Positions 12,475-22,339 of a DNA stretch of 59,730 bases are shown here, piece after piece. The DNA is from Flavobacteriaceae bacterium. Its GTDB lineage: Bacteria; Bacteroidota; Bacteroidia; UKL13-3. Location of the stretch: the NCBI GenBank assembly GCA_025363675.1, contig JANYDJ010000074.1:1-59730 (forward strand). The letters run 5' to 3'. Numbering within the stretch: the stretch's first letter is position 1; each line of letters starts with the position of its first letter. Below the pieces are notes generated by a model. It worked only from the letters and a program-made list of their open reading frames with translations. It searched no databases and had not been told where the DNA came from. Both the position numbers and the translations under genes were made by a program.

Positions 12475-13143
12475 TTATTTTTTGCGAAAAAGTGTCATAA
12501 AATTATCCCCACCAGCAAATTTCGGGGTTTTTGAAATCCATATTTCAATTATAGCCGAAGAGGCAACACCAATAACGGCACCTACTGCCACATCGGATGG
12601 GAAGTGCTGGGCCAGATATATTCGCGACCAACCTATAAAACAAGCTACCACTAATAAAATGAAACTTATATATTTCTTATTAAAAAAAAATGCCACCGAT
12701 GAGCACCACATAAAGCCACCAGCAGTGTGGCCAGAAGGGAATGAATACATTGAATGCAGATCGGTATTTTCTACAATATGCAGCACCGATAAATCATTTG
12801 AAAAAATACCGGCTGGGCGGGCCACTTCGGCAAAGGCAAATGTTTTGAGACTTTGCACAATAATAAATGCAAACGCTCCAGCCAATGTGGTGCCCAGTGC
12901 CCGCTTATAATCTACAAAAGCCATAGCCACAATAATGGGCAGTATAAGAAACCATTCGCCCAGCATGGTGATATAAGGCATCAACGTATCGAGCAGTGCC
13001 GAATGGTATTGATTATTGATATATATAAAAACACGGGTATTGCTATATAGTAATATCAATACACACAATATAACTGAAGGAATTAAAAAAACGAAAAGGG
13101 TAGGGTATAAGTTCGGTTTTACGCTGCTTTGCGGCTTATCCAT
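12475..13143 (-). CDS. PAP2-family phosphatase (membrane)
   Basis: Multiple TM segments plus the PAP2 motifs SFPSGHT and SRIYLAQHFPSDV. Confidence 0.85.
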   Translation of the reverse strand: MDKPQSSVKPNLYPTLFVFLIPSVILCVLILLYSNTRVFIYINNQYHSALLDTLMPYITMLGEWFLILPIIVAMAFVDYKRALGTTLAGAFAFIIVQSLKTFAFAEVARPAGIFSNDLSVLHIVENTDLHSMYSFPSGHTAGGFMWCSSVAFFFNKKYISFILLVVACFIGWSRIYLAQHFPSDVAVGAVIGVASSAIIEIWISKTPKFAGGDNFMTLFRKK

Positions 13144-15260
13144 TTATTGATGATATTATATAAACCGTCGTTACTGAAAGGTTTTGAAATGTAGTCGTTC
13201 ATACCTGTTTCTATGGCCTTTACTTTGGTAGCTTCATAAGCATCTGCCGATATAGCGATTATAGGGATTTGAGGGTTTTTATAGGTTTGGCTCTGCCTTA
13301 TTTTCTGGGTAGCTTCATAGCCATCCATAATAGGCATTTGCAGATCCATCAATATGGCATCGAATTCTTTTTGCTCCATATATTTAAGACATTCCACGCC
13401 ATTGGAAGCAACCTCGAAAGTAGCATTCCATTTTTTCAAAATCTCTTTCATCAATATTTGGTTGATCAAATTATCTTCAACCACCAAGAAATGCCTTCCT
13501 GCAAAATTTTTATTATTTGCAGTGTTCGCCATCACTGGGTTCATTTTAACTGGCGACTGAACAAACTGTGCCACGTTCATATAGTTTTCCGATATCTCGA
13601 AGGGCAGTTCTACATAGAAAGTAGTGCCACGATCTACCTCGCTTTCTAACCATATACGACCTTTCATAAGCTCAACCAATTTATTGGTAATGGCAAGCCC
13701 CAATCCCGTTCCTCCATATTGGCGGTTATGTTCATCTTTTATCTGACGGAAGCTTTCGAATATGATATTGAATTTTTCGCGGGGTATACCAATTCCAGAA
13801 TCGACCACTTCTATATGTAAAATTAATTTGGCATTTTGCAAATCGAGCGACTTGGCTGTGAGTTTAACTTCAACGGTGCCATTTTCAGTAAACTTAAGTG
13901 CATTGTCCACTAAGTTTATTAGTATTTGGTTTAGTCGCACAGCATCGCCTTTTAACATTAATGGCAAGCGTGTATCGACCGATTTGTTGAGTTGTATTTT
14001 TTTAGCATTGGCCTTAACACTGGCCACCCGAAGCACTTGTTGTAATACATCGTTTAAATTAAACTCCGATGTTTGAAGACTTAATTTGCCCGCATCAATT
14101 TTAGAAATGTCCAATATATCATTAATAATTTCTAATAAATTATCAGCAGATAATTGTATGGAGCGGAGATTATCAGCTTGAATTTCGTCGAGCTCTTTTT
14201 CTTGCAACAGCAATTCTGTTAAACCAATAATGGCATTCATGGGTGTGCGAATCTCATGACTCATATTGCTCAAAAACTGGCTCTTTGCTTTGTCGGCAGA
14301 TTCAGCTGCATCTTTTGCTTCAATGAGTTGCGACTCATTGCGTTTTAAGTTATCTCTCATCGCTACCAATGCGGTTCCCAAATCGTCTCGCGGACCGATG
14401 GGTTTGAAAGGTTCATCGTAGTTTCTTGTTCCTATCGAATTGGCAAATTGCGTTTTCTGTTTCAGCGATTCGGTGAGCATATCTACCGATTGTATCATTT
14501 TGCCAATCTCATTTTGGCTCACTCTTAAGTCTGACTTTGAAAGCTCTCCGCGACTCACACGGTTTATCACGTTTCGCAATTGTACCACTGGTTTGGTAAT
14601 GAGGTTACCCATATAAATGGATATAATAACTCCCAATATACTAAACAATATAGAAAGCCCGATAATGCTGTACCTTAAGTTATCAGCAGTTTCTGACAGT
14701 ATCAGTTCGCTTTCGGCAAATTCTTTCGATTTTAATTTTTTAATTTTGTCAACTCTGGTAGCTAGTTCATCACTTTGCTCTATCACATTGCCCAACAGGT
14801 CGCTGCTTTCAATTTTCGCTTCTGCAATTTCGTACGATTTAAAGTCGGGCAGGTAAGCCATTATTTCTTTTTCCCAACCCAAAATAACCTCAAACAAAAC
14901 AAATGCGGAATCCATTTCTTTAACTGAGTTTTGGTCGTCCCACTTAGCCATCAGTTTTTTAATGTTCTGCTTTATCTGGCGATATTCTGTCTGGTGCAGT
15001 TTTTTTAGTGCCGATTTATCATAATCATTAGGCTGCGATAAAACCCAAGTAATGGTGAGCATTCTCGATTTCACCACCATATTGTCAAAGTCGTTCACGG
15101 CCTCAAGCGAAGGGGCAACTACAGTAGAAATTTTCTCTGAAATATTGGTGTTTGCTTTCAGTGCAAAAAAGCTAACGATAGCATATAACATCAATAAGAA
15201 TACAAGGATAAAGAACCCTGTAAATATCTGGCCATTCAGCCCAAATCTTAGTTTAGCCAT
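13119..15260 (-). CDS. hybrid sensor histidine kinase / response regulator
   Basis: 713 aa. Two TM segments flank a ~170-aa periplasmic region and are followed by a HAMP-like linker. H-box FLSNMSHEIRTPMN, N/G boxes (NLVDNALKFT, DSGIGI, GGTGLGLAI) and a C-terminal receiver domain (LVVEDN...ILMDLQMPIMDG...KP). Confidence 0.9.
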   Translation of the reverse strand: MAKLRFGLNGQIFTGFFILVFLLMLYAIVSFFALKANTNISEKISTVVAPSLEAVNDFDNMVVKSRMLTITWVLSQPNDYDKSALKKLHQTEYRQIKQNIKKLMAKWDDQNSVKEMDSAFVLFEVILGWEKEIMAYLPDFKSYEIAEAKIESSDLLGNVIEQSDELATRVDKIKKLKSKEFAESELILSETADNLRYSIIGLSILFSILGVIISIYMGNLITKPVVQLRNVINRVSRGELSKSDLRVSQNEIGKMIQSVDMLTESLKQKTQFANSIGTRNYDEPFKPIGPRDDLGTALVAMRDNLKRNESQLIEAKDAAESADKAKSQFLSNMSHEIRTPMNAIIGLTELLLQEKELDEIQADNLRSIQLSADNLLEIINDILDISKIDAGKLSLQTSEFNLNDVLQQVLRVASVKANAKKIQLNKSVDTRLPLMLKGDAVRLNQILINLVDNALKFTENGTVEVKLTAKSLDLQNAKLILHIEVVDSGIGIPREKFNIIFESFRQIKDEHNRQYGGTGLGLAITNKLVELMKGRIWLESEVDRGTTFYVELPFEISENYMNVAQFVQSPVKMNPVMANTANNKNFAGRHFLVVEDNLINQILMKEILKKWNATFEVASNGVECLKYMEQKEFDAILMDLQMPIMDGYEATQKIRQSQTYKNPQIPIIAISADAYEATKVKAIETGMNDYISKPFSNDGLYNIINKWISRKAA

Positions 15261-15271
15261 AAGCGTATATA

Positions 15272-17284
15272 TTAAAAGATAATGGGGTTGGAATAATTAA
15301 CAGATTGATGATCGTTGTCGTAAAAACCAAGTTTAAAAATAATTTTTAGGAACAATTCTCGCCCACCTCCAGGCACTGGGTTATTAATTCCCATCGAGCT
15401 ATTGTTTGGATTATTATATGCTTGGAAATATTTAAAATTGTGATTCAATATATTATATATTCCTGTATGTACTTCTATGGGGCTTTTGGGTGATGAATAA
15501 TTCATCGTTACATCAAGCATAAGCAAGGGGTCTTGCTTATCTCGCCCACCAGATTTAATACCCGTTATTTTACTATAATACTGCCCGTTAAGGTTTATCC
15601 AATAATTATTAACCAAATTGTATTGAAGCGATGCATATAGTTTATGAGAAGCAAAACCCAGTAACCCGCTATTGCCCGATTCGAGTGAATACAGGTTTGA
15701 ATCTTTATGGGCTTTTTGGAAATAGGTATAATAAGATTTGAAGTGCAAACCATCCATCAGCTTCCAGTTAAATTCAAGTTCAATGCCTTGCGAACCAGCA
15801 GATGCTATGTTTACAAAGGTATCATTATAGTCCTTCTTCTGCATAAAAGATATCATATTGCTGGACTTGTTCATAAACACATTTGCCGCAATATTGCAGT
15901 TAGATTTGAATATATAGTTTACCCTAAACTGGGCCGATTGAATTTGTTCTTGTTTTAAGTTTGCATTTAAATAGTTACCATAGTTATTGGGGTTTATTCC
16001 ATAGTGCCCGGCAAAAGCATTTATCTGTAAATTTTTATAATAATATTCGATACCAATTTTGGGAGATACATTTAATTTTTGGCCAGCTTGTATATCTGCT
16101 TTTACACCGGTTTTCACTAGCAGGCGATTAATAAATATGCGGCTCAGGTTTTTTTGAAAAACATTTTGAGCATAGAACGAAGTAGAAGTATATGGATTTA
16201 ATTTGGTTTTGTTTTGCAGCAGGGTATTCTGCTCCCAATTATAATCAACTCCAAAGTATGATAATGATTTTATTTTGTTATCCTCATAAGCATGCTTAAG
16301 CATTAGGCGGGCTTGGGCTTTGCTTTGCATTATATTGTTAGTGTCTGTAACCATTGGGCTTTGCACAATCCAGTTCATAGGCAACTGTGTCGACATATTT
16401 AGAACAGGCAGAATGGACAAATCTGTTTTTTTAATTTTAAACTCATTGCTAATCTGTAAATTTTGAACCAAACTTCTTATGGTGGATTGCCTTATGGTGG
16501 CTTGGCTCGTGTAATTATTGAGCAGATATTTGATATCCCATTTGTTTAATTTTAATTTGGCAAACAAAAACAGCTCACTCAAGTTGCACTGTTGCTCCCA
16601 ACTGGGGCTAGTAGGAGTTATTTTGCCTATATTTGTTATTTTGCCACTATTATAACTTCCTATTACGGTCCAGTATTTATTCTTACCCAAATTATCTCCC
16701 ATCACTACTGATATTCCACGGCGGGCAAAAGTAGAATCGTAACTTCCGTTGCTAACAGAAACACGGGCACCTTCCAGTTTGTCGCCACTGCGGGTAATTA
16801 TATTGATGGTGGTAATAGTATTTGCCCCTTGGAATTGTACTGAACCAGCACCTTTCACAATTTGTATCTTCTCAATCATATCAATAGGTATACGTTGGGC
16901 TATGGAAAAACCGCCGAGCAGGCCATCATTTAAAACAACATTGTCGACTAGCAGGGTAATTTTATTTTGTTGGGCCCACATGCCTTGGTAGCCCATTCCT
17001 ATTTGGCCATTTACGTTTTGGGCAAACTCAAATCCGGGTATCATACGCATCACGTCCATGAGGTCGCGGGCACCACGGTTGGCAAATTCGTCGTGTGTTA
17101 TTTCAGTAAGGTTTCCAGGTGATTCTTCAAACCGCACCACCACTTTTTTAAAGACCGATTCTTTAAGCAAGCTATAAATATCAATCTCATCCAAGTCCTT
17201 AAACTCGTTGGTATCAATCTGGGCTTGTACACTTCCAATGCCCAATAATAGTAGTAAGAATAAGAGTTTATTTTGTTTATTCAT
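15272..17284 (-). CDS. TonB-dependent receptor
   Basis: 670 aa. Signal peptide, plug-domain motifs (ITHDEF...GARDLMDVMRMIPG, IEKIQIVKGAGSVQFG-like), a long beta-barrel region and a C-terminal aromatic residue (…NPIIF). Confidence 0.85.
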   Translation of the reverse strand: MNKQNKLLFLLLLLGIGSVQAQIDTNEFKDLDEIDIYSLLKESVFKKVVVRFEESPGNLTEITHDEFANRGARDLMDVMRMIPGFEFAQNVNGQIGMGYQGMWAQQNKITLLVDNVVLNDGLLGGFSIAQRIPIDMIEKIQIVKGAGSVQFQGANTITTINIITRSGDKLEGARVSVSNGSYDSTFARRGISVVMGDNLGKNKYWTVIGSYNSGKITNIGKITPTSPSWEQQCNLSELFLFAKLKLNKWDIKYLLNNYTSQATIRQSTIRSLVQNLQISNEFKIKKTDLSILPVLNMSTQLPMNWIVQSPMVTDTNNIMQSKAQARLMLKHAYEDNKIKSLSYFGVDYNWEQNTLLQNKTKLNPYTSTSFYAQNVFQKNLSRIFINRLLVKTGVKADIQAGQKLNVSPKIGIEYYYKNLQINAFAGHYGINPNNYGNYLNANLKQEQIQSAQFRVNYIFKSNCNIAANVFMNKSSNMISFMQKKDYNDTFVNIASAGSQGIELEFNWKLMDGLHFKSYYTYFQKAHKDSNLYSLESGNSGLLGFASHKLYASLQYNLVNNYWINLNGQYYSKITGIKSGGRDKQDPLLMLDVTMNYSSPKSPIEVHTGIYNILNHNFKYFQAYNNPNNSSMGINNPVPGGGRELFLKIIFKLGFYDNDHQSVNYSNPIIF

Positions 17285-17819
17285 TTCTTAGTGCAAGGTT
17301 TCTTAATTCGCTAGACACGGCCATTCTTTTACCAGACGCACCTGTTGAATTTAGTTCAAAATTAAGGTTATTATTGTTAATTACAAAGTTTATGTCAGAA
17401 CCCTGTCTTATTGAGCCCGTTCTTTCGGTAATAACAAGTACCGATTTGTTTCCTATTTTTAACACAAAGCCTGGCAATGCTGCATTCTTGCTTTTGCCTA
17501 CAAATAAAATATGGCAGTTAGATGGATCGTCTGTGTTTTTCACTCTTAGTACCACCATGGTTTGTCCTTTAATTTTTTTTACCTGAGCCATGCGGGTCAT
17601 TGTATTGTACAACTCATCATTTCCAGTTATACCTACTACAAAATTTCCCGCTCGCCTGTCTTCAGGCCATTCAACGTATTTGGTAAAATGGTACAGGAAT
17701 TTGGCATGCAGGGTATAGTCAATCTCTTGCTGGGCCCAAGCATCGAACACAGGGAAGGTGGCCATAGTGCCTACCGCCATCAACAATGTCCATAGTTTTA
17801 ACTTGTAAAATTTTCTCAA
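17277..17819 (-). CDS. YfiR-like periplasmic protein (DUF4154)
   Basis: 180 aa with a signal peptide. The KFLYHFTKYVEWP motif is characteristic of DUF4154/YfiR. The stop overlaps the TonB-receptor start by 8 nt. Confidence 0.7.
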   Translation of the reverse strand: MRKFYKLKLWTLLMAVGTMATFPVFDAWAQQEIDYTLHAKFLYHFTKYVEWPEDRRAGNFVVGITGNDELYNTMTRMAQVKKIKGQTMVVLRVKNTDDPSNCHILFVGKSKNAALPGFVLKIGNKSVLVITERTGSIRQGSDINFVINNNNLNFELNSTGASGKRMAVSSELRNLALRNE

Positions 17820-18016
17820 TACCCAATAATAAAAATTGCCCGTGACAAAAGTAGGGGAGAAAGAGGGGAAAAATCTTTTGAAATCGAGAGCAAGTAGAGA
17901 CTTTTTTGAACAATTTGTGGATTGGTTTTTGGGGATTTAGGGGTTGGGATATAGTATTCAGGTTCGTAAGCTATTTGTTATTTTCAAAAACATGAATAAA
18001 TTAATAAAAATGAGCA

Positions 18017-18024
18017 TACTTTTG
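18017..18024 (+). promoter_or_regulatory. -7 promoter box TAnnTTTG (TACTTTTG) for the ATPase cassette
   Basis: Exact consensus match 36 nt upstream of the ATG at 18060. It overlaps a small CTTTTG-CGAA-CAAAAG hairpin. Confidence 0.4.
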
Positions 18025-18059
18025 CGAACAAAAGAAACCTATTAGACACCAGGAATTAA

Positions 18060-19154
18060 ATGAAAGTACTAAGATATAGTTATGAATTAAAAGAAGGAGA
18101 CAATTTTAAATTGAATTCATTGGTTACAGATTCAATTGAATTAAGCGATTTGAATTTATTAGTTGGTAGAAATGCTTCTGGGAAAACTACCGTTGCGAAT
18201 GTTCTTGTTGATTTGGCTTCTATATTAAAAGGGACTCTAAGAATAGGGAAATATTATATCGAGCTCGAGTCGGAAGATTTGAGCATATTCAAATATACTT
18301 ATGAGTTAACTGTTAAAAAGGACATAATCATATCAGAAACACTTTTACACGATGACAAAATCTTAATTAATAGAAATGATACAGAAGGAGAAATTTTTTC
18401 AGAGAAAGAAGGAAAGCTGGTTCCAATAAATCCACCAAATGATAAACTTGTTCATCAAGTTAGAAGAGATCAAATAGATCACCCATATTTAGAAGAAATT
18501 GTTCGTTGGGCAGAAAGTGTCCATTCTTTTAAATTTGGGCACATACACTCTACTTCATTTCTTAAATCTCCGTTTACTAACACAAATTTTACTAATACTA
18601 AACTGACGAGTATTAATGATAAAGATATAAATAAAATATTGGGCGAATTAAAAGAAGAAACTAAATCACAAATCATTAAGGAATTCAACTTGTTAGGTTA
18701 TAATTTGAAAATATTGACAATAAAGGATGAAGGAGGGCAAAATGTAATATATGTTAAAGAGAATGATCTAAAATATGAGATTAATCAGGCAACTCTTTCT
18801 CAAGGAATGTTTCGTTCGCTTTTTGTTTTAATATTTATACATCATCTCATTGAAATGGAAAATGCGAAACTAATTATTATAGACGATTTATGTGAAAGTT
18901 TGGATTATGAACGTGCAACAAAGCTAGGAAATTTGCTTTTTAATAAAATGCAAGATTCTAACATTCAATTTATTGCTACATCTAATGATTCCTTTTTGAT
19001 GAATGTTATTGATATAAAATACTGGAACATTATTTATCGAGAAAAAGATACAATTAAAGTTTATAATTATAGAAATTCTAAAGAGAAGTTTGATAAATTT
19101 ATGGATAGCGGATTTAATAACTTTGATCTACTAACTTCAAATTATCTTAACTAA
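18060..19154 (+). CDS. ABC/AAA_21-type (OLD/AriA-like) ATPase without a fused nuclease domain
   Basis: 364 aa. Walker A GRNASGKT, signature-like LSQGMFRSL, Walker B LIIIDDLCESLD. There is a long insertion between Walker A and the signature, as in SMC/OLD-type ABC ATPases. Very AT-rich. Confidence 0.8.
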   Translation: MKVLRYSYELKEGDNFKLNSLVTDSIELSDLNLLVGRNASGKTTVANVLVDLASILKGTLRIGKYYIELESEDLSIFKYTYELTVKKDIIISETLLHDDKILINRNDTEGEIFSEKEGKLVPINPPNDKLVHQVRRDQIDHPYLEEIVRWAESVHSFKFGHIHSTSFLKSPFTNTNFTNTKLTSINDKDINKILGELKEETKSQIIKEFNLLGYNLKILTIKDEGGQNVIYVKENDLKYEINQATLSQGMFRSLFVLIFIHHLIEMENAKLIIIDDLCESLDYERATKLGNLLFNKMQDSNIQFIATSNDSFLMNVIDIKYWNIIYREKDTIKVYNYRNSKEKFDKFMDSGFNNFDLLTSNYLN

Positions 19155-19159
19155 CTTGT

Positions 19160-19879
19160 ATGAGGAAAATTGCTATATTTGTTGAAGGACAAACTGAATT
19201 AATATTTGTTAGAGAGTTTATACGTAATATATTTAGTTACAATGTAGATATTGAATGCTATCGCCTTTTTAGAGAGGGCAATCTAGAAAATGCTGAATAC
19301 CCGTGTAAATGTCCCAATGCCGATGCTCATTATACCATAATAAATGTCGGCAATGACGCTAAAGTCCCTACTGCGATATGCGATAGAGCAAAATCCTATT
19401 TTTCAAAAGGATATGAAAAGATAGTAGGACTTAGAGATATGTATAGTAGAAAATATAAAGAAAAAACCAATATAATAGATCCTAACATTAATAAAGCATT
19501 CATAGAATTAACTGAGGAAATTGTAAAGCTACGTTCAAAAGAACATCATGTAAATATTCATATCTGTTTTTCAATAATGGAAATAGAGTCTTGGTTTCTT
19601 GCAATGCATGATGTTTTCGAAAGGATACATCCAGACTTAGATATAGAATCAATTAAAAATAAACTAGGTATTGATTTGCCAACAATAAATCCAGAAAAAG
19701 AGATTTTTCATCCTGCTGAAGAAGTTGCAAATATATATGAATTGGCTTGTATGCCATATGAAAAGCATAAAGGTGACATTGAATCGTTTTGTAGCAAATT
19801 AAGTTATGATGATTATAGTAAACTTTACCAATCTGATTCATGTATGAGTTTCAATTATTTTTATGATAAAGTGATTTAA
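19160..19879 (+). CDS. Toprim-like partner protein (DUF4276/DUF4435-like), putative nuclease
   Basis: 239 aa starting 5 nt after the ATPase stop. N-terminal IAIFVEGQTELIF (EGxxE acidic strand), GLRDMY, and the IMEIESWFLA motif typical of DUF4276-like proteins as I recall them. Confidence 0.6.
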   Translation: MRKIAIFVEGQTELIFVREFIRNIFSYNVDIECYRLFREGNLENAEYPCKCPNADAHYTIINVGNDAKVPTAICDRAKSYFSKGYEKIVGLRDMYSRKYKEKTNIIDPNINKAFIELTEEIVKLRSKEHHVNIHICFSIMEIESWFLAMHDVFERIHPDLDIESIKNKLGIDLPTINPEKEIFHPAEEVANIYELACMPYEKHKGDIESFCSKLSYDDYSKLYQSDSCMSFNYFYDKVI

Positions 19880-19882
19880 TTT

Positions 19883-19933
19883 ATATATTTTGTTATAATA
19901 CTTTTAGAAAAAGCTATTATAACAAAATATATA
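19883..19933. other. 51-nt AT-rich near-perfect hairpin at the 3' edge of the cassette (possible terminator or boundary)
   Basis: ATATATTTTGTTATAATACTTTT-AG-AAAAAGCTATTATAACAAAATATAT. The arms are complementary apart from one bulge. No T-run follows. Confidence 0.5.
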
Positions 19934-19945
19934 GACAATCCATTT

Positions 19946-19953
19946 TATTTTTG
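19946..19953 (+). promoter_or_regulatory. -7 promoter box TAnnTTTG (TATTTTTG)
   Basis: Exact consensus match 11 nt upstream of the mutS2 ATG. Confidence 0.45.
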
Positions 19954-19963
19954 CAGCCACATT

Positions 19964-22339
19964 ATGAGTCTATACCCCGAAAATATTGAGCAGAAAACCG
20001 GCTTCGACCAAATACGTTTATTGTTGGCAGCCAAGTGCATTAGCCCAATGGGAGAGGGCTATGTGCAGAAAATGCGGTACAGTTCGGATGCGAAACTGAT
20101 TGGTAAATTATTGAAGCAGACGGATGAGTTTATGGAAATAATTAATACTGCTTTGATATTTCCTACCGAGCATTTTTTGCCCATAAAAGAATATATAAAT
20201 AAAGCCAGTATACAAGGTGCACATTTGAGCGAACATGAATTGCACGAACTGCGAAATATGTTGAGTACGGTGAATCGTATTATACATTTTTTTAAAGGAA
20301 AAGAAGAACAGTTTGCCGAGTTATATAAAATTACGGATGGGCTGCACCAGTTCAATGATATTACGCATGCTATTAATAGCAAAATAGATATAAACGGGGT
20401 GATGAAACCCAATGCTAGCAAAGCGTTGGAGGGTTTATATAGTAAAATATCGGCCAACGAAAATTTGGTGAGAAAACGTATTAATAGTATAGCCAAAAGT
20501 ATTACAGAAAACAATTGGGGACCCGAGACAACTATTACTATTAGAAATGATAGATTAGTGGTGGCTGTTTTTCCCGAACATAAAAGAAAAATACCCGGAA
20601 TTGTGCATGATGAATCGGCAACGGGCCAAACATTATATATAGAACCGGGTGAAATTTTTGAGCTGAACAATTATACTATTGAACTTCATCAAGAAAAGAA
20701 AAAAGAAATCCGTAAAATTCTTATAGAGCTTACCAGCCTAGTAATGCCGCATGTGCAAGAGCTTTCTATCTGTTGCGATAGATTGGGCATGTTCGACTTT
20801 ATTAGAGCCAAAGCATTGTTTAGTATCGAACTAAAATGTATAAGTCCGCAGATACATGACAAGCCGATTGTGAAGTTAGTAAGTGCAAGACATCCCTTAT
20901 TATATATAAGTTTAAAAAAGCAAAAGAAACAGGTAGTTCCACTTTCAATAGAACTGGATAGAGATAAAAGAATTGTGGTAATATCAGGGCCAAATGCAGG
21001 TGGGAAATCGGTATTATTAAAAACAGTGGCATTGGTGCAGATGATGGTGCAGCATGGTTTGCCCGTTCCTTGCAAAGATGGAACTGAGATGGGCATGTTC
21101 AAACAAATATATATAGATATTGGCGACCAACAAAGTATAGAAAATGATTTGAGTACCTATAGTAGTCATTTGTTGAATATGAAACATTTTACCACTTTTG
21201 CCCATTCCAAAACTTTGTTTTTAATTGATGAATTTGGTACAGGAACTGACCCCCAATTGGGCGGGCCAATGGCAGAAGCAATTTTAGAAGCTTTGAATAG
21301 AAAGTTTGCTTATGGTATTATAACAACACACTTTAGCAATCTCAAAATATTAGCACAACACCTGCATGGGGTATATAATGGAAGTATGCTATTTGATAGT
21401 AAAGAATTGGCTCCATTATTTCAATTTGAACCGGGTGTGCCAGGTAGTAGTTATACCTTCGAGATAGCCCAAAAAACAGGCTTGGACAAAGATATTATAC
21501 AAAAGGCGGTACAAAAATCGGGGAACAAACATAACCAGGTTGAGAAACTTATTATAGAATTAGAAAGAGAGAAAACATATATCAAGAATCTGAAAAAAGA
21601 TTTAGAAAATCAGCTACAAAAAACGCAGGAAACGCAACACAAATTTGAAGAACAAAATTCAGAACTGAATAAAACAAAAAATGATATTATAAGCAAGGCT
21701 AAAAATGAAGCTTTGCAACTTATTAAAAATGCAAACAAAGAAATTGAGCAAACTATTAGGTTGATTAAAGAAAATAAAGCAAGCAATGAAACCACCAAAT
21801 CGGTAAGAAAAAATTTGGATGACATGGCTTCACAACTCATACCCGAAGAGCAATCAAATATAAAAACAAACAATAATGATTTAAAGATTTTAATTGGTAG
21901 CAAGGTGCTGATGCCCAATAGCCAGACGGTGGCGGAAGTGTCGGCTATAAAAAAGAATAAAGCCGAGGTGGTGATGGGCCATATAAAAACCTGGGTAGAG
22001 ATGGACCAATTGGAACTGGCACCCCAAGAAGAGAAATTACCACACAACCACAGGCGTATACATGCTGGAGTAGATTTGAATGAAAAACTTGCACACTTTA
22101 ATGCAGAGATTAATGTGATAGGCAAACGAGGCGAGGAGGCATTGCAGGAAGTAATGCATTTTTTGGATGAGGCAATTATGCTCAATTTTTCTCGGGTACG
22201 AATAGTGCATGGGAGAGGGGCAGGTATACTTAAAAGATTAATAAGAAGTGAGTTGAAGAAAATAAGAGCGGTAAAAAATCTTCAAGACGAAGCCCCTGAG
22301 TTTGGCGGAGATGCAGTAACCGTTATTGATTTAGAATAA
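19964..22339 (+). CDS. mutS2: endonuclease MutS2 (MutS domain V ATPase + C-terminal Smr)
   Basis: 791 aa. Walker A ISGPNAGGKSVLLKT, Walker B FLIDEFGTGTDP, a coiled-coil Lys/Glu-rich linker, and a C-terminal Smr domain (INVIGKRGEEAL...RIVHGRGAGILK). Confidence 0.92.
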   Translation: MSLYPENIEQKTGFDQIRLLLAAKCISPMGEGYVQKMRYSSDAKLIGKLLKQTDEFMEIINTALIFPTEHFLPIKEYINKASIQGAHLSEHELHELRNMLSTVNRIIHFFKGKEEQFAELYKITDGLHQFNDITHAINSKIDINGVMKPNASKALEGLYSKISANENLVRKRINSIAKSITENNWGPETTITIRNDRLVVAVFPEHKRKIPGIVHDESATGQTLYIEPGEIFELNNYTIELHQEKKKEIRKILIELTSLVMPHVQELSICCDRLGMFDFIRAKALFSIELKCISPQIHDKPIVKLVSARHPLLYISLKKQKKQVVPLSIELDRDKRIVVISGPNAGGKSVLLKTVALVQMMVQHGLPVPCKDGTEMGMFKQIYIDIGDQQSIENDLSTYSSHLLNMKHFTTFAHSKTLFLIDEFGTGTDPQLGGPMAEAILEALNRKFAYGIITTHFSNLKILAQHLHGVYNGSMLFDSKELAPLFQFEPGVPGSSYTFEIAQKTGLDKDIIQKAVQKSGNKHNQVEKLIIELEREKTYIKNLKKDLENQLQKTQETQHKFEEQNSELNKTKNDIISKAKNEALQLIKNANKEIEQTIRLIKENKASNETTKSVRKNLDDMASQLIPEEQSNIKTNNNDLKILIGSKVLMPNSQTVAEVSAIKKNKAEVVMGHIKTWVEMDQLELAPQEEKLPHNHRRIHAGVDLNEKLAHFNAEINVIGKRGEEALQEVMHFLDEAIMLNFSRVRIVHGRGAGILKRLIRSELKKIRAVKNLQDEAPEFGGDAVTVIDLE

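Follow-up and report, generated by a model that had tools for sequence, protein, structure and literature searches.

An ABC ATPase–DUF4276 gene pair inserted at a yfiR–mutS2 junction is a divergent, Bacteroidota-centred member of a catalogued class of candidate defence modules

We analysed a 59,730-nucleotide stretch of DNA (the window; positions 1 to 59,730 of contig JANYDJ010000074.1) from a Flavobacteriaceae bacterium (assembly GCA_025363675.1), in which a two-gene cassette lies between a yfiR-like gene and mutS2. The inserted segment of ~2.07 kb (17863–19936, no strand assigned) carries two open reading frames (ORFs) on the plus strand, ORF1 (18060–19154; 364 aa), encoding an ATP-binding cassette (ABC)-type ATPase of the AAA_21 family, and ORF2 (19160–19879; 239 aa), encoding a DUF4276-family protein. 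These coordinates confirm that the two ORFs are co-directional and 5 nt apart, as described in a first-pass annotation of the same DNA. Upstream of the pair is a match to the pattern of a Bacteroidota-type −7 promoter-like box (TACTTTTG, 18017–18024, plus strand), 35 nt 5′ of the ORF1 start codon, and downstream is an AT-rich hairpin (19882–19933, plus strand) that begins 3 nt past the ORF2 stop codon. A second pattern match, the TATTTTTG box before mutS2 (19946–19953, plus strand), marks the right-hand native boundary and lies outside the cassette. The pair had been put forward as a possibly undescribed module; however, HEC-01 and Mad3–Mad4 are existing catalogue entries for such pairs, which have also been grouped with AbiL and PARIS. 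The cassette is a divergent, Bacteroidota-centred member of this catalogued class of candidate anti-phage modules.

The yfiR–mutS2 junction was compared with that of three relatives (L005, L019 and L020; one from a genome collection, two from metagenomes) whose MutS2 proteins are 89–91% identical to that of the window. Gene order on both sides is identical in all three, with the yfiR-like gene followed directly by mutS2 and the pair absent. Homology to the relatives ends at 17861/17862 and resumes at 19946 (BLAST) or ~19937 (alignment), the resumption point being a shared TATTTTTGCA box ahead of mutS2 that is kept in all three just 5′ of the start codon. Where the window has ~2.07 kb, the relatives have an unrelated G-rich spacer of 140–180 bp. 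Since an empty junction with the same breakpoints is found in three close relatives, the cassette is a lineage-specific insertion that was acquired horizontally. The first ~90 bp of the inserted segment (17863 to ~17950) are G-rich and resemble the relatives' spacer; they may represent diverged native spacer, in which case foreign DNA would begin near 17955. The spacer is hypervariable among close relatives, with flanking genes that are ~80% identical in DNA: L005 (9803–9981) and L019 (309–487) have one common G-rich spacer of ~179 bp, and L020 (5843–5983) has a different spacer of ~141 bp with internal repeats (TTGTCAAATC...). The nearest relatives of the window are Chitinophagaceae and Bacteroidota metagenome-assembled genomes.

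Horizontal acquisition had been proposed from base composition, and low GC content, low GC content at third codon positions (GC3) and the empty junction in the three relatives together bear this out. The segment 17863–19936 has a GC content of 0.284, compared with a contig mean of 0.362 ± 0.023 for windows of the same size, and is the lowest in the contig. GC3 is 0.21 in ORF1 and 0.20 in ORF2, against 0.30–0.41 in six neighbouring genes. The direction of the contrast was therefore as first described, but its size had been overstated by hand counts implying ~0.20–0.23 inside the cassette and 0.40–0.50 outside it. No flanking direct or inverted repeats, target-site duplication or terminal inverted repeats were detected beyond chance AT-rich matches, and the window contains no tRNA gene as an insertion site. 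As also noted earlier, neither an integrase nor a transposase is adjacent, the flanking genes being syntenic housekeeping genes.

ORF1 had been described as an AAA_21-type ABC ATPase that lacks a nuclease, and its Pfam score and structural matches agree. The protein scores 35 bits against AAA_21 (PF13304; cut-off 27) over model positions 1–303 of 304, and has about 300 homologues of ~360 aa each. A 45-sequence family alignment served as the basis of an AlphaFold2 (AF2) model with a pLDDT of 89.6, for which Foldseek returned PtuA (from Septu and retron complexes), SMC heads and Rad50 (E ~1e-10, probability 1.0), with TM-scores against solved ABC ATPase heads of up to 0.58 (query-normalised) and 0.68 (target-normalised). 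As modelled, ORF1 is an SMC/Rad50/PtuA-like ABC ATPase head, with no fused nuclease or long coiled coil and only a short disordered insert predicted at residues 172–182. In PADLOC, all 45 family members match a 304-position 'AriA' model (best 8e-27); this model, which was matched over its full length, equals Pfam AAA_21 in length and is probably generic. All 45 also match AbiLi (best 8e-21) and 44 of 45 match HEC-01A (best 4e-17). Judged by these sequence models, the ORF1 family appears about equally distant from AriA (304), AbiLi and HEC-01A.

The ORF1 motifs listed in the first-pass annotation (GRNASGKT, LSQGMFRSL and LIIIDDLCESLD) are all present in the translation and correspond to conserved positions of the family. 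They belong to an ordered set of Walker A (G36–T43), signature (L246–G249), Walker B (L271–D275) and D-loop (L281–D282), with Walker A, signature and Walker B invariant across the 45 sequences. The family fails to match the canonical ABC catalytic set of a Glu after the Walker B Asp and a His in the H-loop: D276 occupies the usual site of the catalytic Glu and N309 the H-loop position where a His is canonical. Both residues are invariant in the 45 sequences and in distant members from Bacteroides and Paraburkholderia, whereas P2 Old has E and H. In window coordinates, D275–D276 and L281–D282 fall within 18870–18905, and S308–N309–D310 at 18981–18989. The equivalences rest on the hhhhDD...LD pattern in a multiple alignment and on the model strand 271–275; MAFFT shifts Walker B by one residue, and an hhalign comparison of the ORF1 family with P2 Old aligned only Walker A, so that the Walker B and H-loop equivalences were not confirmed in that way. 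Asp for Glu combined with Asn for His is the pattern of ABC sites that bind ATP and hydrolyse it poorly, for example the degenerate site of TAP1. Read from these residues, ORF1 may act as a slow-hydrolysing ATP-bound switch and not as a motor.

ORF2 has 427 homologues, nearly all of which are 235–253 aa and full length, and most of which carry a precomputed PF14103 match; the earlier description of ORF2 as short therefore does not hold against its own family. Only DUF4276, RloB and OLD-like_TOPRIM turned up in a Pfam scan of ORF2, all three under their cut-offs (DUF4276, PF14103, 23.5 against 30.2 bits; RloB, 19.7 against 31.5 bits; OLD-like_TOPRIM, PF20469, 17.0 against 23.2 bits and residues 5–30 only). 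The affinity to DUF4276 suggested at first reading is borne out at family level, with DUF4276 matched by 33 of 44 homologues at E ≤ 1e-3 and by 43 of 44 at E ≤ 0.5. OLD-like_TOPRIM is the second commonest family (29 of 44, weak and always over the first strand and helix), and RloB is matched by just two of the 44. A Paraburkholderia protein annotated in RefSeq as 'DUF4276 family protein' passes DUF4276 over the full model (30.4 bits) and aligns with ORF2 from end to end. By this sequence relationship, we read ORF2 as a divergent DUF4276 member at family level. A link to DUF4435 had been claimed as well, and was not recovered: ORF2 has no match to it even at E up to 1, and it is not among the families listed for relatives. 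Of the PADLOC models, the ORF2 family matches those of HEC-01B alone (42 of 44 members, weak, best 2e-9), and the window protein reaches E = 1e-4 at best, over 26–53 residues of models with 213–230 positions, which we would expect to fall short of the usual coverage thresholds. Matches this weak and partial suggest that the ORF2 family forms a sister branch, one that the HEC-01B models do not cover.

The AF2 model of ORF2 (pLDDT 95.6, pTM 0.91) has an N-terminal alpha/beta domain (residues 1 to ~140) and a helical C-terminal domain (143–238), with an order of elements compatible with Toprim (b1, a1, hairpin, b2, a2, b3, helices, b4, helical C-terminal domain). The motifs named previously (IAIFVEGQTELIF, GLRDMY and IMEIESWFLA) were all found at conserved positions of the family, in which E9, G10, E13, N62, G90, L91, D93, E141, E143 and W145 are conserved together with D or E at position 66. 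Six of the conserved residues are acidic (E9, E13, D66 (D/E), D93, E141 and E143). E9, invariant in vEGxTE, is the conserved Glu ending strand 1 and aligns with the 394–410 motif of Old inside its Pfam TOPRIM domain. The central motif reads GL[RSQ]D followed by M/L and Y/F, i.e. GLxD with a single Asp, and was rightly noted as atypical and without a DxD: only D93 is conserved and R92 is variable. DUF4276 and RloB have been placed in the Toprim superfamily (PMC12065111), and from this published placement of DUF4276 we regard ORF2 as a putative metal-dependent nuclease of the Toprim superfamily. Of the original Toprim call for ORF2, the EGxTE strand stands, while a Toprim or nuclease fold was not recovered by the Foldseek and profile tests considered below.

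At every locus inspected, a gene for an AAA_21 ATPase (353–410 aa) lies directly 5′ of a co-directional DUF4276-like gene, and the two often overlap by 4 bp. The genes around the pair differ from locus to locus and are unrelated. The pairing is further supported by 24 ORF1/ORF2 homologue pairs on contigs of identical size in both match lists, and GC content is below that of the flanks in nine of nine cassettes measured. The pair is a conserved, horizontally mobile unit that is sporadically inserted in unrelated chromosomal sites, a megaplasmid and phage or prophage contigs. In Bernardetia (CP147012) it adjoins a PIN toxin pair, and in the 4.5-Mb genome ERZ25067825 (L004, 8725–16717) it abuts a Dnd-like phosphorothioation cluster, a clear defence island. 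The cluster comprises DndE, two AAA_23/SMC_N proteins, a DEAD/SNF2 helicase, a PAPS reductase and a PF27807 dnd-associated protein, with an S1-P1 nuclease gene upstream. At four further chromosomal sites the pair stands among ordinary genes. On 'plasmid 67' of Bacteroides finegoldii (NZ_OY725969; L016, 6935–8726) it lies within a capsular-polysaccharide locus, with an ORF2 that is 37% identical. There the pair sits between tyrosine-protein kinase and sugar-transporter genes on the same strand, downstream of an UpxY antiterminator, an unusual site for a defence cassette. On a conjugative Paraburkholderia megaplasmid the pair is near IS66.

Relatives were also found on 22 viral contigs in IMG/VR. 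One pair is located 2.3 kb from a tail gene, and a second is surrounded by typical phage accessory genes. In L033 the pair is found amid genes for a PAPS-reductase, an amidoligase and a pyrophosphatase. ORF2 relatives on 17 viral contigs (L021–L036 and L040), mostly from sample 3300045988, have the same identity levels (38–40%) and alignment scores, and these contigs may all derive from a single abundant lineage of phage or prophage with the pair as cargo. A tblastn search against GenBank phages (INPHARED) gave no match.

Among known systems, the HEC-01 candidate and Mad3–Mad4 come closest to the pair. HEC-01 (Hma-embedded candidate 01, PADLOC-DB v2; Payne et al. 2024) pairs an ABC ATPase with a TOPRIM protein (10.1101/2024.01.29.577857). 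It shares with ORF1–ORF2 the two-gene architecture in which the gene for a stand-alone ABC ATPase directly precedes that for a small TOPRIM-like protein (168–230 model positions), HEC-01B being the sole PADLOC family for ORF2 and HEC-01A being matched by ORF1 relatives. However, the ORF1–ORF2 pair is not embedded in an Hma system, and its ORF2 matches are weak and partial. Mad3–Mad4 likewise combines an AAA15/21-type ATPase with a DUF4276 protein, Mad4 (PMC12065111), and deletion of mad3 or mad4 lowers MADS defence (10.1101/2023.03.30.534895). ORF1 matches the mad3 model at 1.5e-7, whereas the mad4 model is unmatched by ORF2 and its family, and NCBIfam MAD3 gives 17.9 bits against a cut-off of 420. 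Assignment to MADS was rejected, as the cassette is flanked by genes for YfiR, a TonB receptor and MutS2, with neither the mandatory Mad6–8 genes nor any methyltransferase gene nearby, and there is no mad4 match.

AbiL and MADS3–4 have been grouped with PARIS and OLD as ABC ATPase plus TOPRIM systems (Burman et al., PMC11464382). AbiL is an experimentally confirmed abortive-infection system, and according to a 2026 review the mechanism of AbiL, RloAB and a Nostoc pair is still open (PMC13064643). AbiL and RloAB resemble the present pair in joining a Rad50/SMC-like ABC ATPase with a separate Toprim/OLD-like protein, and AbiLi is the best PADLOC match of ORF1 (1.5e-17), yet over positions 73–255 of a 326-position model only. 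AbiL was discarded as an identity for the pair: AbiLii is RloB-type, and ORF2 falls short of RloB (19.7 against 31.5 bits, with matches in 2 of 44 relatives) and has no AbiLii model match.

PARIS (AriA/AriB, OLD class 4) also has its ABC ATPase and Toprim nuclease on separate genes and provides a mechanistic template, in which an ATPase scaffold frees a tRNA-cutting Toprim effector upon a phage trigger. However, AriB is a 35 kDa DUF4435 protein and ORF2 has neither a DUF4435 nor an AriB match; AriA is a 55 kDa protein whose coiled-coil insertions build a hexamer, compared with 364 aa or about 42 kDa for ORF1; and the specific AriA models match ORF1 weakly (4e-4) and 14 of 45 family members. 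The PARIS link drawn in the first-pass annotation thus finds no DUF4435 or AriB match in ORF2 or among the families listed for relatives. With neither a DUF4435/AriB partner nor AriA-type coiled-coil insertions in ORF1, PARIS was rejected.

Class 1 OLD (P2 Old) and class 2 OLD (Gabija GajA) proteins comprise the same two functional parts, with vEGxTE on the first Toprim strand, and old, like relatives of the ORF1–ORF2 pair, is an accessory gene of phages. Here the parts occupy two genes, whereas in OLD and GajA they are fused in one protein of ~580 aa, and Old has a DE Walker B, an H-loop His and a DxD in place of the DD and Asn of ORF1 and the single Asp of ORF2. OLD was set aside on the unfused parts, a PF20469 score below cut-off (17 against 23.2 bits) and a probability of 1.3% in the OLD profile comparison by hhalign. 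PtuA of Septu and retrons gives the best Foldseek matches of ORF1 (8eea, 8sux and 9n69; E ~1e-10) and is likewise an ATPase that regulates a separate nuclease, but its partner is the HNH nuclease PtuB and not a DUF4276 protein, and the PtuA sequence model matches ORF1 weakly (5e-4).

PARIS, OLD, Gabija and Septu offer an analogy from which we propose that the pair is probably an ABC-ATPase sensor holding a separate metal-dependent nuclease effector, with a role in phage defence or abortive infection. In this proposal, ORF1 would bind ATP, dimerise or oligomerise, and keep ORF2 inactive until an infection cue alters the state of the ATPase, upon which ORF2 would be released or activated. ORF2 would then cut nucleic acid through a divalent-metal site formed by E9/E13 of the EGxTE strand, D93, D66 and E141/E143. 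The target could be tRNA, which AriB and P2 Old cut, or DNA, which is cut by GajA and class-1 OLD, and cleavage would halt phage replication or host translation.

Several observations weigh against this proposal. To date, no such stand-alone pair has been demonstrated to protect by itself, and a HEC-01 representative tested in E. coli gave no protection (10.1101/2024.01.29.577857). Most chromosomal contexts of the pair are ordinary housekeeping neighbourhoods and not defence islands, and at least one OLD-family ATPase, the archaeal Cran1, serves the cell cycle and not defence (PMC12796447). With regard to the effector, the canonical Toprim DxD is reduced to a single Asp in ORF2, and its model returned nothing at E ≤ 1e-3 and no Toprim or nuclease in the top 50 when searched with Foldseek against the PDB and BFVD. 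The top matches in that search (guanylate kinases, alpha/beta hydrolases and lumazine synthases) superpose poorly and were not taken as homology. Searches of PDB sequences with ORF2 and its family by phmmer and profile hmmsearch gave nothing meaningful, and hhalign probabilities for the ORF2 family were 0.6% against P2 Old alone and 1.3% against an OLD profile built from the C-terminal regions of 24 class-1 OLD proteins. When hhalign was limited to the Toprim core, only 13 residues aligned, AIFVEGQTELIFV with VLLVEGKTETNVL (P = 0.001, probability 20%; reversed control, P = 0.04), which is not significant.

Some of these points bear directly on alternative explanations. ORF2 might be no nuclease: with its Toprim-like site decayed, it might act as an adaptor, as a regulator that binds nucleotides or metal, or as another kind of hydrolase that partners the ATPase. 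The Foldseek result despite a model with a pLDDT of 95.6, the non-significant comparison with the OLD Toprim profile, the single conserved Asp where Toprim has DxD, and window-protein scores under the Pfam cut-offs for DUF4276, RloB and OLD-like_TOPRIM all fit this explanation, which we nonetheless consider improbable. Alternatively, stand-alone DUF4276-partnered pairs could be a working anti-phage system with a mechanism unlike that of PARIS or OLD, in which the degenerate ATPase would serve as a long-lived ATP-bound latch and the effector, with a rebuilt metal site (E9, E13, D93, D66, E141 and E143, no DxD), would have its own target; this appears possible, if unlikely. The failure of HEC-01 to protect when tested would also be expected of a selfish addiction module of the toxin–antitoxin (TA) type, in which ORF2 would be a toxic nuclease and ORF1 its ATP-dependent neutraliser, such that loss of the pair kills the cell with no real anti-phage benefit. 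The tight two-gene architecture with 4-bp overlaps, the sporadic insertion in unrelated loci with foreign composition, the presence of the pair on plasmids and prophages, and a review in which PARIS is said to work in E. coli as a TA system of type II (PMC13064643) are in line with this. However, TA and abortive infection are not mutually exclusive, PARIS being described both ways (PMC13064643), and relatives beside Dnd and amid phage moron genes are typical of defence cargo, leaving an addiction module as a rather unlikely explanation.

The Cran1 precedent (PMC12796447) raises, in parallel, a housekeeping or DNA-metabolism role in repair, the chromosome or the cell cycle. The ATPase resembles SMC and Rad50 heads, and the pair is located directly upstream of mutS2 in the window and directly downstream of a UvrA-like gene in two unrelated genomes. 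However, the pair is absent from the locus in three of three close relatives, its composition is strongly foreign, its distribution is patchy and includes carriage by phages and plasmids, and there is no conserved third gene, with a repair gene adjacent in just three of nine contexts; we therefore regard a housekeeping role as highly improbable. The UvrA-like genes (1027 and 943 aa) are those of Bernardetia CP147012 and metagenome ERZ25039529, on the same strand as the pair (L001, 3720–8762; L010, 2909–7717; L011, 395–5203), and the pair and mutS2 of the window (18060–22339) make up the third of the nine contexts with an adjacent DNA-repair gene (UvrA-like or MutS2). This adjacency may be due to chance or an insertion-site preference, and a functional link is possible.

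The pair may be expressed from a promoter of its own. The TAnnTTTG box reported at 18017–18024 is present as TACTTTTG, and copies of the pattern precede yfiR (17846–17853, minus strand), ORF1 (18017), mutS2 (19946) and the next gene (22409). Across the whole window the pattern is enriched (136 observed against 90.6 expected), which fits a Bacteroidota −7 promoter element, so a single copy proves little. Two homologous cassettes of other organisms (L008 and L010) have an identical TACTTTTG 37–42 nt 5′ of the start codon of their ATPase gene, and its retention there supports a putative promoter carried by the cassette. The hairpin claimed after ORF2 is real: its arms (19882–19905 and 19910–19933) are 24 nt long and 92% complementary, with a minimum free energy of −23 kcal/mol (z = −7.9; 0 of 200 shuffles as stable). 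It is probably a transcription terminator or insulator that separates the cassette from mutS2. The terminal hairpin is not conserved downstream of the homologous cassettes compared, and is thus local to this insertion. No Rfam family matched in or around the cassette.

The neighbouring genes encode a hybrid histidine kinase, a TonB-receptor plug protein, a YfiR/HmsC-like protein, MutS2 with an Smr domain, a protein sorted by the type IX secretion system (T9SS) and a rhodanese protein. The histidine kinase, TonB-dependent receptor and YfiR/HmsC-like genes (13119–17819, minus strand) form a compact block, with 11 nt between one pair of neighbours and an overlap of 8 nt between the other; this block is syntenic in all relatives covering the region and looks like one operon that ends at the insertion point.

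As a catalogue entry, the cassette adds a branch to a known tree and no new tree, and will not surprise a specialist. Three features make it mildly interesting: the degenerate ATPase site found throughout the family, the effector motif with its single Asp, and the clean contrast of empty and filled junctions, the last of which offers a well-defined insertion for studying how a cassette moves without a recognisable recombinase. The DD of Walker B and the Asn of the H-loop, present throughout the family, provide a natural test of whether OLD-like immune ATPases signal through ATP hydrolysis or through binding alone, a question that is shared with PARIS, Gabija and Septu. If the pair proves active, it would give the first phenotype for a widespread and as yet unproven class of stand-alone ABC ATPase–DUF4276 pairs (HEC-01-like), and this phenotype would come from the Bacteroidota, in which few defence systems have been tested.

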